Below, piece after piece: positions 9,001 through 18,000 of a stretch of DNA of 64,000 bases. The DNA is taken from assembly GCF_003991155.1 (NCBI RefSeq), contig NZ_CP031297.1. One strand, 5' to 3'. Positions within the stretch are counted from its first letter, which is position 1. Every line of letters starts with the position of its first letter. This DNA is from Escherichia coli. GTDB lineage: Bacteria; Pseudomonadota; Gammaproteobacteria; Enterobacterales; Enterobacteriaceae. A program made the position numbers.

Positions 9001-12000
9001 TTACCTTCGTAAGGGCAAGGAACTTGTTTGGTAATAACTGTCGCTGAGTAATCTTCGACACTTTCAAACCCATCGGGGCAACCATACCCCGACGGGGATG
9101 TTGCCCCTTTTTGCTTAGGAGCAACATCATGGAAATCGCTATCATCGCTTTGTGTATCCCTGCTGGTTGGGCAATCTCTCGTCCTTTCGTGAGAATCGCT
9201 GAATCGTTCGGTTACTGCTGATAGTCAACGCAAAGGGAGGGGGCAACCCCTCTCTTTCTGGTCAAGCCTCTGTGGCTTGTCCTCAAAGTCTTCTGGTGTC
9301 AGTTGGCTTTGACGACAAGCTACAGGGGGAATGTCGAATGCAACAGAATCTTCATGTTTACGACGATCACGCAGGCATCATCTATCTGGCTGATGGACGC
9401 GAGGTGAAATTTGATCCGAAACTGTATTCCAGCTCCTACCAGGCGCACAGTGAAGCAGTGAAGTGGGCCAAAGAAACCGGGGTCATTGGTCAAAACGACG
9501 ATGTGGTGATGTTCGTCCATTGAGGGAGTAGCCTCCAGGAGAGGCTACTCTCCTCGCTCCTTAAAAGTCTTCTTACTCATGGTGAATACCATCAGTAAGC
9601 AGATTTTGTTCTCTTCGGAGAGCGAAAAGTGCGATAGCTGGTCGCCAAAAACAAACAGCAAATTAACGTTAATTTACTAGCCCAACCGGGCGCATCCGCC
9701 CGGTTCGGGACGTGGTGCGCCTGTCACAATAGGAGCGCACCTATGTCTCAATACTCTCAATTCTCAGTAAGCAAGGTTTTCGGTATGCCCAGCATTCCGG
9801 AGAAGGTAACGGCCATCGGCTACGCTGACGGTTCAAACCCTTTCATCCCTGCCACTGATACCAACTACGTTTTCCGCAAAGAGTTTCTGCGAGAGGTCTT
9901 GGCCTATCTCAAAGAGCCTGGCGGTGACGCATTGTTCGTAACCGGCCCTACCGGGTCTGGCAAAACCTCAGGTATCACCGAGATCGCTGGTCGTCTCAAC
10001 TGGCCTGTTCAGCAAATCACTGCCCACGGGCGGATGGAGCTGACAGATCTGATTGGACATCACGCTCTGGTCGCGGAAAAGCCTGGTCAACCACCTGTCA
10101 TGAAGTTCATGTATGGACCTCTGGCAGTCGCTATGCGTGAAGGTCATCTGCTCCTCATCAACGAGGTGGATTTGGCCGACCCTGCCGAGCTGGCTGGTCT
10201 CAACGATGTCCTTGAAGGGCGTCCCCTTGTGATCGCTCAGAATGGCGGGGAAATCATCAAGCCGCACCCGATGTTTCGTGTGGTCGTTACTGGTAACTCT
10301 ACGGGGTCCGGTGATGCTTCTGGTTTGTACCAGGGGGTGATGATGCAGAACCTCGCAGCTATGGATCGCTATCGTTTCACCAAAGTAGGGTATGCGGATG
10401 AGGAAGCTGAACTCAGCATTCTTGGCCGTGCTACTCCGAAACTTCCGGAAAATGTGCGGAAGGGAATGGTTCGGATTGCTAATCAGGTCCGCAAACTGTT
10501 TCTTGGCGAAAACGGTGAAGATGGTCAGATCAGCGTCACCATGTCCACTCGGACGTTGGTGCGTTGGGCGAAACTGTCTCTAGCGTTCCGTGGTGCCCCA
10601 AATGCTCTTGAATACGCCTTGGATCAAGCTCTGCTTATCCGTGCGGCCAAAGAGGAGCGTGAAGCCATCCTGCGTGTTGCGAAGGATGTGTTCGGGGACC
10701 AATGGCGCTAAGAGGTGACGCATGAAGAAAAATGACTGTTTGTGCCGTCGTTACACTGCTAAAGAGTGGGGCAATGACGAAACCACAATAGAAGTCTTCA
10801 TTGGCTACAAGTTGCTCCGGGAGCCCAGCTCCTCGGAGCCAGGCCAATTCACGATGGTCGAGCTACGCCGAACCGTCACTGATGGGAAAGCTGAAAATTG
10901 GTCTGAGACAAAGCTCGAAGGACCTTTTGAAGCTAACGGCCCAGACACGATCCCAATGTCCTACAAGGACAAAGAAAGCCAGTATGTGTCACAGTTTCTC
11001 AGCCAGGGGTACACCTTTCTGGATGAGGTGCTGGTAAACGCAGAGACACAGACGGTGCTGGAAGGGGGGAATGTTTCAGCCGGACAAACAGCCAGCTTGG
11101 GATCTCTCAACTGGCTGTTATCTCCGCCCTCTGAGTTACCTCCAGGTGACATAAACCTCTTCAAAGGTTTTGTTGCTGGGGTTTTTGCCAAAGGAGCCGG
11201 TTTAATCGGCTTTGAGGTTGCTCGGAGCGAAGGCTCAAATGACTTGCTACCCAGTGTGCTGATGCGTACTGACAGCGGTTATGAGCTTGGGGTTAGCACT
11301 GGACTAGGCGAAAACACTATCCATCCAGCTACGCTGGAAGGCGCTGGTGAACTCCGCCCGGAACATGGTCACAAACCCCTGCTGATGTTGGTTTACCTGC
11401 AACAGCGTTTCGCGGATGACTTTTCAAACGTAGAGAAGCCGCTGGTGGCATTCTGTGATGAACAGGGTGATACCTTCGACTACGAGCGTTTTGATTCACT
11501 AAAACCCCTCATTGAACGGTTTGGTTTCAGCTACGACGAAGTAAGAGCAGATGCAGAAAGGCTTGGCCTTGTATCTGAGCTGATTCGCCTGGCAGAGATC
11601 GACGCCGAACAAGAGGATCACTTTTTTTAACCCTTACGGGGGCTTGCTCCCCGAAAGGGGCGTTGGCCCTCTCCAAATAACTTGGAGGTCATGATGTCTA
11701 AAGGCGTCAACAAAGTAATTCTGGTCGGTAATCTCGGTTCTGACCCGGAAATTCGCTACATGCCAAGCGGCACTGCCGTTGCCAACTTCAACGTTGCAAC
11801 AACGGATACGTGGCGCGATAAGCAGTCTGGCGAGCAAAGAGAGCATACTGAGTGGCACCGTATTGTGCTTAAAGGTCGTTTGGCGGAAGTCGCTGGTGAG
11901 TACCTGAAAAAGGGCTCCCAAGTCTATCTCGAAGGGAGCAACCGCACCCGGAAGTGGACTGACAGCCAACAAATCGAGCGCTACACCACCGAAGTACACT

Positions 12001-15000: not shown

Positions 15001-18000
15001 ACGGTCGAGGAGCGGATTGGCTTTGAGTACCAGGTGTTCATGATCCAGCCTGTGAACGAAGATGAGGCCAACGCCAAACGCCTTAACCGCAAGGTTGAGC
15101 GCCTGGGTGACGATCTCATCTCCGAAGTGGTTCAGGAAGCGAATAAGTTCTATATGGAACGTTTGGCCGGTCGAGACCAATGTGCGGTCACTACTCGGCA
15201 GACACTCCGTAACATCCGCGACAAGGTGGATGGGCTTAGCTTCCTGAACAGCGCTTTTAACCCTCTGGTCAAGCTGCTCGACCAAACCCTCCGGGGATAC
15301 GAGCAACATGCCGATGGCCGAAACATCGTTGCGCCTTTCTTTTATCAGGTCGTGGCCGCAGTGCTGATCATGAGCGAGAGGGACCGCATCGAGCAGTATG
15401 CCAATGGCTCGATTACTGTAGAGGGCATGGCTAATGACATTGGCGGTTCGGGAGCCCAGATGGGGGACCGTTCTAAAGATGAAAAGGCCGAACAGAAAAG
15501 CGATAAAGCCGGTGAGCTTATCCCTGCAACAGAGGGTGGCGAAACCAAGCAGCAACAGGTAGGTGGTACTGAATCTGTTCAATCAGAACAGACTAACAGC
15601 GGTGGTAACTCTGTTGACCTGGATGAAGACATCGACAACTTCTTCAAGAGTTTTGCAGAACGAGGCGAGGGTGAATCGGAAGATGAATCCAATGCCGGTG
15701 ATGTGGTTCGAGAAGAGCGTGTTGATGTTGAGGATGAGCTGGTTTTGCCTGAGGAAACTCCGGTAGAGCAAGAGCCTGTCCAAGAGGAGACGACAGAGGA
15801 GCCTCTCAACCAGGAGCTGCCTAAAACTGACGACGATGGCGACTATTTCTTCTAATAGTCACTTCAACTAAACCGACCCGGAGGGGATAGCCATTCCCTC
15901 CAGGGGTGGACTATCTCCTTCCCTACCAGGAGAAAAGATATGTCCAAAAAACGCACCATTTACAGCGCTCTACCAATCGTGGCCGCAGCCTATGGTGAAA
16001 AACTCGGTGTCAAAGTCGCCATCGGTAACGATGACGCATACACCGATGGTAAGACCATCGTGGTTCCGAATATCCCCGACGACTATCCTCACATGGATGC
16101 TGTCTGGGGGTATTTGGCCCATGAAGCAGCCCATGTCCGGTTTACGGACTTTGGTGTTGAGCGCCGCAGAGGTCTTCATGCTGAGTTGTCCAACGTTTTG
16201 GAGGACTGCCGCATAGAACGGGCCATGATGGAACTCTTCCCCGGTACGTCGCAGACCCTGAATGAGGTTGCTCGCTATATGGCTCAAGCTGGTCATTACG
16301 AGCACGTCACAGACAAAGAGGCCCCTGCCTCCATTCTGACAGGGTTTTGTTTGTACTGGTTGCAAACCAAGGCTGTAGGGCAATCCGTCCTTCAACCCTA
16401 TCTCGATTCGGCTACCCCCGTATTCGAGCGCGTGTTCCCTCAGGGTGTTGTTGTTCGGCTGAACGCTTTACTGCGTAAGGCTGTGAACACTAAGTCAACC
16501 GCAGAGGTGACATCCTTGGCCGACCAAATCATCAAGATGATCGAGGAGGAAAAGGAGAAAGAAGAGCAAAAGCCCCAGAATGGTCAGGATGGTAACAACC
16601 AGCAGAATGCTGGTGGCAACCAACCTCAGAACAGTCAGGGCGGAAGTGGTAACGATCAAAACCAAGGGCCTGATGCCAATGGTGGTGATCAGCAAGGTAA
16701 AGACCAGAAGCAAGACGATGCTAACGGGAAATCTGATCCGAAAGGACAGGGCGACCAAGGCAAGTCGGATACTGATGGTGGCAGCAAGGCAGGACAAAGC
16801 CAGGCTGGTGGCAATTCTGACGCGGCGAAACAAGACGCGGCCAAAATGCTCCAGCAGGTTCTGAATGCCGGTGCCGGTGATTTGCGTGGTGACGCGCATG
16901 ATGCACTTAAAGCCGAGCTCAACCGGGTGGCTCAAGATAAGGGGGACAGTAGCTATATGACTGTTCGCTCTGCTGTGAACACCCAGGACAACCCTGCTGT
17001 TGGCAAAAGCCTGGTAGGGGATGTGAAGAGCACCACTTCAAAGATAAGAACGCAGCTCTACGGATTGGTCCAGGCCAGCCAGCGAGTTGCTCACCGTAAC
17101 CAACGATCAGGGAAGCGTGTGGATGCTCGGAAACTACATCGTGTAGTGACGGGTGATACCCGCGTATTCCTCAAGCCAGAAGCCAAGAAACGCCCTAATA
17201 CGGCGGTTCACATCCTGGTTGATATGAGCTCCTCGATGGCCTACAAGGCCGCCAATGGAAAGGAGCGTCAAGACATTGCGCGGGAAGCGTCCTTGGCTAT
17301 TTCGATGGCTCTGGAAGCAATACCCGGCGTAAACCCGGCAGTCACCTTTTTTGGTGGCAACCGGAACCAGCCAGTGTTCAGTGTCGTGAAGCATGGAGAT
17401 ACGGTTCAGAATCGGGCCGGTCGGTTTGGGTTCAAAGCAACTGGCGGTACGCCTATGGCGGAAGCTATGTGGTATGCAGCTTTTGAACTCACCAAGACCC
17501 GTGAAGAGCGAAAAATGTTGATCGTAGTGACTGACGGGCAGCCTCAAAGAGCCCCGGCATGTCGCTCAGTGATTGACCTCTGTGAACGAAGCGATGTTGA
17601 GGTGATCGGCATAGGGGTAGAGACTACCGCAGTGTCAGGACTGTTCCAAAAGAACATTGTCATTGATGATGCGGCAGCTCTGCAACGCACACTGTTTAAG
17701 TTGATGGAGCGGTCATTGACTGCTTTTGCAGCTTAACAGGAAGTGAAACGACAAACGGCTATCCCTTCGGGGGTGGCCGTTTTTATTTGGAGAGTCTATG
17801 AACCAATTCCATTCATCTTTGGATTTGTATCATCGGAACAAAGGTAGAAGGGCTACAGTGCCGGAGACGCCTTTTTTACTGCTTGCTAAGCGCATTCCTC
17901 CGATGTACTGGAGACTGTTCCAGGGTGTTACTTTGGATAGTCGTATGGGATACACAGGCAGGCGGCAGTTCCACCGTCTTGGGCAAGCAATCGACTGGGC

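Follow-up and report, generated by a model that had tools for sequence, protein, structure and literature searches.

The stretch of DNA analysed here (the window) comprises 64,000 nucleotides of contig NZ_CP031297.1 from the Escherichia coli assembly GCF_003991155.1, and it is the backbone of an IncC conjugative plasmid. Over positions 9000–18500 it agrees at 100% identity with hundreds of conjugative plasmids of the IncC (A/C2) group, found in Klebsiella, Escherichia, Salmonella, Vibrio and other genera (862 matching plasmid records, 754 of them at 99% identity or more); in the annotated twin pEC732_IMP14, this region has traN on one side and, on the other, methylase and primase genes that form a block. 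This region encodes a CobS-like AAA+ ATPase and a CobT-like protein with a von Willebrand factor A (vWA) domain. Both genes lie in a single operon activated by AcaCD, the former as its first large gene and the latter at its end. The operon reads: promoter Pvcrx087, vcrx087, vcrx088, a leader, the ATPase gene, vcrx090, ssb, bet, exo, another leader, the DUF3150 gene, the vWA gene and a terminator. Names are those of plasmid pVCR94 (KF551948), whose coordinates were transferred to the window via the gene starts in Dataset S1 of Carraro 2014, with an offset of 56521; by this correspondence the ATPase gene is vcrx089, the next open reading frame (ORF) vcrx090, ssb, bet and exo are vcrx091–093, the DUF3150 ORF is vcrx094 and the vWA ORF vcrx095. 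What is new here is that a published two-gene system, vcrx089-090, is extended to a machine of four conserved genes that resembles CobST, bears a probable peptidase motif and displays a shared C-terminal tail code. The large genes of the operon are as follows.

9743–10711, + strand: Vcrx089, CobS-like MoxR-class AAA+ ATPase, 322 aa (Pfam, structure-library profile matches)
10722–11630, + strand: Vcrx090, putative WGR-like N-terminal domain, alpha/beta C-terminal domain, tail ...EQEDHFF
11691–12221, + strand: ssb (Vcrx091)
12316–13305, + strand: bet (Vcrx092), RecT-family annealase, tail ...EGSYY
13368–14378, + strand: exo (Vcrx093), YqaJ-family exonuclease, tail ...VETFYW
14578–15855, + strand: Vcrx094, DUF3150, beta-sheet and helical-bundle core, disordered acidic C-terminal region, tail ...DDDGDYFF
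15940–17736, + strand: Vcrx095, CobT-like adaptor, 598 aa (Pfam, profile search, orthologue alignment)

A CobS-like motor and a CobT-like adaptor

An earlier note on this DNA, made from the sequence alone, had taken the products of 9743–10711 and 15940–17736 for a MoxR/CobS-type ATPase and a vWA protein carrying a MIDAS (metal-ion-dependent adhesion site), reminiscent of CobT, and profile searches bear out both assignments. Vcrx089 matches the Pfam families AAA_5 (PF07728, E = 7e-16, 58.9 bits for a cutoff of 22) and CbbQ_C (PF08406, E = 3.8e-15, 56.3 bits for a cutoff of 20.6), the latter being a lid of the CbbQ/NirQ/NorQ type that covers residues 223–315. Among solved structures it matches CobS over nearly its full length (residues 7–285, E = 4.6e-32), and also midasin AAA domains, NorQ and CbbQ. 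The Walker A motif, GPTGSGKT (residues 68–75), is invariant in 69 orthologues. The Walker B motif, LLLINEVD (residues 136–143), follows the pattern hhhhNExD instead of DExD: the catalytic Glu is retained while the Mg-binding Asp is substituted. Since the Asn is kept in 65/69 orthologues (the Glu and D143 in 69/69), this substitution is a family trait and not a sign of decay. PADLOC returned no defence-system match except a weak AAA match.

Vcrx095 consists of an N-terminal domain with the pattern HEAAH...EDxRxE (residues 61–93), an acidic linker rich in Q, G and D (~200–300), a basic segment (~370–410) and the vWA domain. Pfam recognizes the latter (VWA, E = 2.8e-9) and, narrowly, the CobT N-domain (PF06213, E = 5.3e-6, 26.6 bits for a cutoff of 26.1); the CobT N-domain match spans the HExxH region in nine of ten orthologue N-termini, mostly under the cutoff. 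A profile built from four sequences matches solved CobT (E = 1.5e-17) and NorD, and its positions 360–460 align with CobT 346–448 (independent E-value 2.5e-4), a segment that spans the CobT shaft, Q373–R413. The MIDAS is complete, with D428, S430, S432, T504 and D532 invariant and DxSxS present in 120/120 homologues. No mention of vcrx095 was found in any paper in the literature search. One E. coli record (P0021) has a 569-aa ORF whose beginning is that of Bet, RecT domain included, and whose end is that of the vWA protein, presumably a fusion created by a bet-vcrx095 deletion in one plasmid.

As judged from the alignment, the N-terminal domain of Vcrx095 probably carries a peptidase motif. 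HExxH followed by E[DEQ]xRxE is found in 113 of 120 homologues, the exceptions being one fusion ORF and an HExxxH clade; H61, E62, H65, E88, D89, R91 and E93 are invariant, and the two downstream glutamates, E88 and E93, are candidates for the third ligand. Bona fide CobT probably reads HDxxxH where Vcrx095 has HExxH. Vcrx095 also matches PHROG 459, which is labelled 'peptidase', and phage CobT families. No peptidase family of Pfam was matched by the domain, and its profile alone matched no solved structure. The crystal structure of the CobT N-domain resembles peptidase M48C (bioRxiv 10.64898/2026.07.21.739949).

The CobS-CobT(-CobN) structures (PDB 9ujv and 9uka) are thus the best solved homologues of both proteins. 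Vcrx089 shares with CobS the AAA_5 domain and an extended lid, and Vcrx095 appears to share with CobT a layout made up of the peptidase-like N-domain, the disordered acidic linker, the segment preceding the vWA domain and a vWA domain with a MIDAS. Unlike CobSTN, however, the plasmid module has neither CobN nor a B12 context, displays an intact HExxH...E, which bona fide CobT may lack, and a Walker B of the NExD type, is found on mobile elements beside ssb, recT and yqaJ, and has two more conserved partners, the WGR-like Vcrx090 and the DUF3150 protein.

The four-gene unit and its C-terminal tails

The conservation of the module was assessed in 77 loci with an alignment to the vWA protein, fetched from 100,044 species genomes, in which ORFs were called and assigned with iterated hidden Markov models (HMMs) seeded by the window proteins. 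Counts were taken over the 65 loci in which the sequence upstream of the vWA gene extends for 7 kb or more, genes being counted within 10 kb upstream and on the same strand. The ATPase gene was present in all 65 loci, DUF3150 in 63, the Vcrx090 family in 57, YqaJ in 56, RecT in 54 and SSB in 38. In 46 loci the four genes encoding the ATPase, Vcrx090, DUF3150 and the vWA protein form an unbroken run; in 17 loci, all of them IncC/SXT-like, (ssb-)recT-yqaJ comes between them. The commonest order, seen in 31 loci, is SSB-RecT-YqaJ-ATPase-X-DUF3150-vWA. In plasmids from Rhodanobacter and Xanthomonas, the ATPase gene, a small ORF, DUF3150 and the vWA gene lie back to back; a Methylophaga plasmid has this order too, with DUF1173 as an additional gene after the small ORF and before DUF3150, and in both the Xanthomonas and the Methylophaga plasmids ssb and a nuclease gene lie upstream. 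The same pattern of ATPase, small ORF, DUF3150 and vWA recurs in an Azospirillum plasmid and a Methylomicrobium contig, while a Comamonas element shows the split order of IncC. A tblastn search of phages matched only seven records.

The co-occurrence of the ATPase and vWA genes in all 65 loci, together with the contiguity of the four genes in 46, indicates one machine that is split in IncC by the recombination genes. The conserved unit has four genes, whose products would be a motor, a WGR-like protein, a DUF3150 protein and an adaptor, and it very probably constitutes a single functional module. The earlier note had described a two-component ATPase-vWA machine whose genes are separated by the recombination genes. 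The pairing stands, backed by the 65 loci and by the presence of a CobS/CobT complex in the same PDB entries; the number of components must be raised from two to four. Likewise, ssb, bet and exo do lie between the two genes, but so do vcrx090 and the DUF3150 gene, which the note did not mention.

As to Vcrx090, the IncC protein has no Pfam match, pairwise BLASTP comparisons with its positional equivalents are not significant, and the unity of the family (66 members) emerges only from iterated HMMs. The family displays the N-terminal pattern LYR..DG.SKDWA....RWGRTG.......KGY. WGR is the only Pfam family matched repeatedly, if weakly, by Vcrx090 orthologues (1/44 and 5/21, E = 0.005–0.1); the best PDB match of the family profile, also weak (E = 0.13–0.15), is the WGR-like N-terminus of 2ra8, and UniRef names one member WGR. 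An AlphaFold2 model of the IncC protein (pLDDT 90) gave nothing significant with Foldseek against the PDB. Vcrx090 is accordingly described as WGR-like with moderate confidence. The minimal members of the family (116–131 aa) consist of the WGR-like domain, a proline-rich linker and the tail only. DUF3150, for its part, was found by the literature search in a single preprint, which is unrelated.

The tails of these proteins have a common character. At least one aromatic residue occupies the last two positions in 60 of 62 members of the Vcrx090 family, 76 of 78 DUF3150 proteins and 53 of 60 YqaJ proteins, the counts for RecT, the ATPase and the vWA protein being 11/55, 13/72 and 2/85. Of the 3269 ORFs in these loci that are 100 aa or longer, 226 end with [FWYC][FWY], and 203 of these belong to the module and recombination families, which leaves 23 among ~3000 others. 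Moreover, the tails covary within a locus: WF/WF/WF in Methylomonas, YF/YF/YF/YF in SXT-like Vibrio, CF/CF in Methylophaga and DY/DY/AY in one locus. With phylogeny uncorrected, the penultimate residue of Vcrx090 equals that of DUF3150 in 17 of 34 non-redundant combinations against 8.8 expected (permutation p ~0.001), and that of DUF3150 equals that of YqaJ in 14 of 30 against 6.4 expected. I infer from these observations that the tails of Vcrx090, DUF3150 and Exo are a code for a common docking pocket. The tails are kept in loci devoid of RecT or YqaJ within 10 kb. On the simplest reading, the docking partner would be a component that is always present, which points to the ATPase-vWA pair, possibly to the MIDAS or to the peptidase-like cleft.

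These acidic-aromatic tails are chemically similar to the C-terminal tip of SSB. In the plasmid SSB, the canonical ...DDDIPF is followed by nine more residues, MRLHHLAGG (relatives end with RLHPLEGG or RLHYMAGG), so that the Phe that is usually free at the C-terminus is internal.

Anti-restriction and the competing explanations

The earlier note regarded the role of these genes in conjugative elements as not established, a statement that still applies to the vWA and DUF3150 genes but is out of date for the ATPase gene. As shown by others, vcrx089-090 give type I anti-restriction in the recipient, without need of ssb-bet-exo. Roy 2020 (PMC7498323) named vcrx089–093 the hde operon and found that deleting vcrx089-090 lowers transfer into Vibrio cholerae O395 25-fold, that the defect is gone in an hsdR-deleted recipient, and that complementation works from the recipient and not from the donor; deletion of ssb-exo had no effect on transfer into an HsdR+ recipient. 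In Dimitriu 2024 (PMC11602122), deletion of vcrx089-090 raised restriction by EcoBI 424-fold and by EcoKI 906-fold. AntiDefenseFinder (PMC11724313) catalogues vcrx089_090 and vcrx091_093 as systems, and the window holds adjacent orthologues of Vcrx089 and Vcrx090, in the order and with the sizes of pVCR94. The genes described here are therefore those of the published system, with essentially the same sequence. That system comprises two genes and came with no mechanism; the present analysis adds DUF3150 and the HExxH-vWA protein as equally conserved partners, the domains and the shared tail.

In the light of this conservation, I consider it reasonably probable that the anti-restriction device is the whole four-gene motor-adaptor module, encoded in a single operon, and not vcrx089-090 only. 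Whether anti-restriction needs the vWA and DUF3150 proteins is a narrower question, on which the chances appear about even.

Several points weigh against this extended device. The published restriction genetics are confined to vcrx089-090 and ssb-exo, and vcrx094 and vcrx095 fall outside them. The defect was complemented by vcrx089-090 alone, though from a mutant plasmid that kept vcrx094-095, so that the published data neither include nor exclude these two genes. The transposon-insertion sequencing (TnSeq) of Roy 2020 flagged only vcrx089–093; since the comparison was between Cas+ and Cas- recipients that both contained the type I enzyme (HsdR+), it was blind to anti-restriction genes. A deletion that appears to span the ATPase through the vWA gene (rptIa-rptIc, see below) leaves the plasmid transmissible, which makes the module dispensable for transfer itself. 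Rockhopper divides the region into separate vcrx089-exo and vcrx094-095 operons (Carraro 2014 Dataset S1). With respect to the proteins, Xanthomonadales versions have no aromatic tails, the end being missing in both proteins together, and HExxH is possibly structural, the CobT N-domain being a peptidase-like fold without reported proteolysis.

How such a device might work is suggested by the CobSTN preprint (bioRxiv 10.64898/2026.07.21.739949), in which the M48C-like N-domain of CobT binds the CobS lid, a disordered linker of ~90 residues follows, the shaft before the CobT vWA domain enters the ATP-bound CobS ring, and the N-domain and the MIDAS hold CobN between them. By analogy, the AAA+ ring of the plasmid module would take the pre-vWA shaft of the adaptor into its pore, with the adaptor N-domain on the ATPase lid, and a client would be held between that N-domain and the MIDAS. 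Vcrx090, DUF3150 and Exo would be clients or co-factors whose tails dock at one and the same site of the motor-adaptor pair, and the WGR-like domain would bring the complex to DNA. Cleavage by the HExxH...E adaptor, remodelling by the motor, or both, would then disable a DNA-bound host protein, most likely the type I restriction complex. In its complete form, namely a four-protein, ATP-driven protease or remodeller with a tail docking code that strips or cleaves type I complexes and passes the DNA to the recombination proteins, this model is speculative and on balance doubtful.

The outcome of the proposed mechanism would resemble that of ArdC or of ClpXP-dependent restriction alleviation. ArdC, from the IncW plasmid R388, is a protein that binds single-stranded DNA, has a metalloprotease domain and overcomes type I restriction in the recipient. 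The similarity is one of function: ArdC joins a nucleic-acid-binding part to an HExxH part, is borne by a plasmid and acts in the recipient against type I restriction-modification. It differs in that one polypeptide makes up the whole protein, without an AAA+ motor or a vWA domain. NorQ-NorD, CbbQ-CbbO and RavA-ViaA offer another comparison, in which a ring motor and a MIDAS adaptor act on a client; the ATPase described here has the CbbQ/NirQ/NorQ lid and its partner has a vWA domain that matches NorD. The clients of these pairs are metalloenzymes, whereas the plasmid module has a DNA and anti-defence context and an adaptor with a probable peptidase motif.

The four-gene device has to be compared with simpler explanations. 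One possibility is that two systems merely share an operon, Vcrx089-Vcrx090 being a self-sufficient anti-restriction pair and DUF3150-vWA serving an unrelated purpose such as establishment, partition or stress. The restoration of transfer by vcrx089-090 alone (Roy 2020), the two-gene definition of AntiDefenseFinder, the separate operons of Rockhopper and the fact that each half has its own leader copy all speak for it. But the complemented plasmid still supplied vcrx094-095, the ATPase gene accompanies the vWA gene in every one of the 65 loci, 46 of which have all four genes next to one another, the tail motifs of Vcrx090 and DUF3150 covary, and all MoxR/CobS ATPases characterised so far (CobST, NorQD) have a vWA protein as their adaptor; taken together, these data make the separation into two systems improbable. 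A function as an accessory to SSB-Bet-Exo, for example in the loading or recycling of Exo at DNA ends or in Gam-like protection from RecBCD, with anti-restriction a by-product of break repair, is improbable to the same degree: it is deletion of vcrx089-090, not of ssb-exo, that affects transfer into an HsdR+ recipient, protection from EcoKI depends on vcrx089-090 with no exo dependence reported, and the module persists, tails included, where RecT or YqaJ is absent from the 10 kb.

The remaining two alternatives stem from other settings of such protein pairs. AcaCD activates the operon and the tra genes alike, the operon has traN on one side and other transfer genes on the other, and a pair consisting of a MoxR ATPase and a metallopeptidase-vWA protein has been proposed to act in virion assembly in jumbo phages (Iyer et al., PMC7824862), so that one might take the module for a chaperone or protease that helps to assemble the conjugation apparatus. 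Such a role is very unlikely, since vcrx089-090 act in the recipient and not in the donor, since the plasmid with the 9,268-bp deletion inferred to remove the ATPase through the vWA gene (rptIa-rptIc) is transmissible, and since the synteny is with DNA-metabolism genes and not with genes for type IV secretion, including at loci with no tra genes nearby. A genuine cobalt or magnesium chelatase pair with an auxiliary metabolic function is evoked by the homology to CobS and CobT and by records named 'cobalamin synthase' or 'CobT'. For want of a CobN and of a fitting context this reading was rejected, and it can be given almost no credit: no ORF in the window has the size of CobN or resembles it (TraN, a Tn3 transposase and a protein of 817 aa without a Pfam match are the only ones that reach 700 aa), no CobN is annotated in the inspected neighbourhoods of other elements, the genes are set among ssb, recT, yqaJ, primase, methylase and tra genes on mobile elements with no cobalamin-biosynthesis context, and the phenotype that has been demonstrated is anti-restriction.

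The phage pair mentioned above, including the phage 'cobS/cobT' families (PHROGs 249, 1576, 459 and 17276), has the same two-protein core as the four-gene module, with adjacent genes and a peptidase-like N-domain on the vWA protein. No DUF3150 gene is present among the annotated neighbours in the two phage loci inspected; no search for the Vcrx090 family was made there.

Among the major vehicles of multidrug resistance are IncC plasmids and SXT/R391 elements, which depend for their host range on escape from restriction and CRISPR. If DUF3150 and the HExxH-vWA protein belong to the anti-restriction system, then detection tools under-define it, half of it was still present in the mutants studied, and its mechanism is open to dissection with ATPase, MIDAS, HExxH and tail mutants; a function would also be suggested for many phage and plasmid 'cobS/cobT' genes now annotated as vitamin B12 metabolism. 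Should the protease and docking model be true as well, the module would represent a new mechanistic class of anti-defence system.

The operon, its leaders and the neighbouring genes

The elements that govern expression of the operon, its two small leading genes and the other copies of the leader are located as follows.

8498–8526, + strand: AcaCD box of promoter Pvcrx087, sequence GAAGTGCCCAAAATGGACAGTTACAGCGT, transferred from the pVCR94 position
8561–8713, + strand: leader copy 1, 5' untranslated region (UTR) of vcrx087, begins at the mapped transcription start site (TSS)
8714–9034, + strand: vcrx087, small ORF, first gene of the operon, no Pfam match
9338–9523, + strand: vcrx088, small ORF
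9601–9742, + strand: leader copy 2, directly upstream of the ATPase gene, hairpin GCGA-UAGCUGG-UCGC at ~9631–9645
14436–14577, + strand: leader copy 3, directly upstream of the DUF3150 gene
17753–17792, + strand: intrinsic terminator, 13-bp stem then a T-run, 17 nt past the vWA stop codon, end of the operon
18269–18397, + strand: leader copy 4, upstream of vcrx098 and downstream of the AcaCD box at ~18146–18174
26468–26591, + strand: leader copy 5
32725–32855, + strand: leader copy 6

In pVCR94 the AcaCD motif lies at 65019–65047 and the TSS, mapped by rapid amplification of cDNA 5' ends (5'-RACE), at 65081–65083 (Carraro 2014 Table S3), which corresponds to 8560–8562 in the window. All genes from vcrx087 to vcrx096 drop from ~250–11,000 expression units to ~0–9 in the absence of AcaCD, vcrx096 being expressed at about half the level of vcrx095 (Carraro 2014 Dataset S1). 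Reverse transcription-PCR with a vcrx094 primer extends to vcrx087 (Roy 2020, PMC7498323). No peak of AcaCD is listed between the vcrx087 and vcrx098 promoters in the tables of Carraro 2014 (chromatin immunoprecipitation with exonuclease digestion, ChIP-exo), and a scan for sigma-70 promoters detected no such site inside the operon, nor in either copy of a 121-nt repeat; short reads within exact repeats may, however, have been dropped from the ChIP-exo and RNA-seq analyses.

The two copies of this 121-nt repeat, at 9601–9721 and 14436–14556, are 100% identical. The earlier note had supposed that each of the ATPase and vWA genes is preceded by its own copy and that the repeat is promoter-like. 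The former is true of the ATPase gene, whose start codon lies 22 nt past the end of the first copy; the second copy precedes DUF3150, and the vWA gene follows DUF3150 after a gap of 84 nt that contains no repeat. The latter has to be abandoned in view of the scan, the listed peaks and the collapse of expression of vcrx087–vcrx096 without AcaCD. Rather than a promoter, the repeat is a 5' leader that is transcribed and contains a covarying hairpin: copy 1 starts at the TSS, so the element is transcribed and forms a 5' UTR. Six members of its family occur in the window (0 expected by chance), all on the + strand, each ~100–130 nt upstream of a start codon and just upstream of an ORF that begins a module. 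A 32-nt core, GTGCGATAGCTGGTCGCCAAAAACAAACAGCA, is invariant and is found at 8585, 9629, 14464, 18296, 26492 and 32749. In the hairpin, the stem varies with compensation (GCGA/UCGC, GAGA/UCUC, GCGG/CUGC, GAGG/CUUC and GUGA/UCAC among the window copies and the related elements L005, L011, L013 and L020), while the loop UAGCUGG and the sequence that follows it, CnAAAACAAACAGC, are invariant; variable hairpins flank it. The leaders would act at the level of RNA, on translation, processing or stability, and Roy 2020 (PMC7498323) predicted an RNA structure at copy 2 that hides vcrx089's ribosome-binding site. Rfam gave nothing at the repeat, either with the gathering threshold over the whole window or with E<=10 over 8400–18500; a reading of its GCG[A/G]TAGC as an ops/JUMPstart-like element is unsupported because of this lack of an Rfam match.

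The leader family is probably the rptI repeat of Roy 2020 (PMC7498323), a substrate of recombination by Bet/Exo. This identification is drawn from the spacing of the copies, which equals the sizes of reported deletions. In pVCR94 coordinates, 9,268 bp separate the copies upstream of vcrx089 and vcrx098, the size of the rptIa-rptIc deletion that left the plasmid 'transmissible', and 10,311 bp separate the vcrx087 copy from the vcrx098 copy, as compared with 10,310 bp for the rptIb-rptIc deletion. A distance of 4,835 bp (in pVCR94, 4,832 bp) separates the two exact copies of the 121-nt repeat, and Roy 2020 also describes a 4,936-bp rptIVa-rptIVb deletion whose plasmid is transmissible; if rptIV were these two copies, the deletion would take away the ATPase through exo and leave DUF3150-vWA behind vcrx088.

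Beyond the operon, a sequence that resembles an AcaCD box, CACCCGAAAAGGGCAGT, lies at 18146–18174, ~95 nt upstream of leader copy 4, and is the predicted site of the vcrx098 promoter; the interval between vcrx095 and vcrx098 is ~600 bp longer in pVCR94 than in this plasmid. Further downstream are genes for an N6/N4-methylase-like protein with a DpnI_C-like helix-turn-helix (19563–20486), a Dcm-type C5 methylase (23614–25239) and a primase with Zn-ribbon, DUF7146 and Toprim domains (33579–35402). The same type of primase is found downstream of the module in the unrelated elements L005, L007 and L009. With this methylase and primase block, the recurring primase type and no tra genes, the interval from 8.5 to 35 kb looks like an establishment and anti-defence region. 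A Tn3-family transposase gene on the minus strand (37226–40198) and two Rfam AAC_AAD_leader/attI matches (42158–42227 and 47042–47113) mark a resistance/integron region beside the backbone, and the GC content shifts from ~38 kb on.

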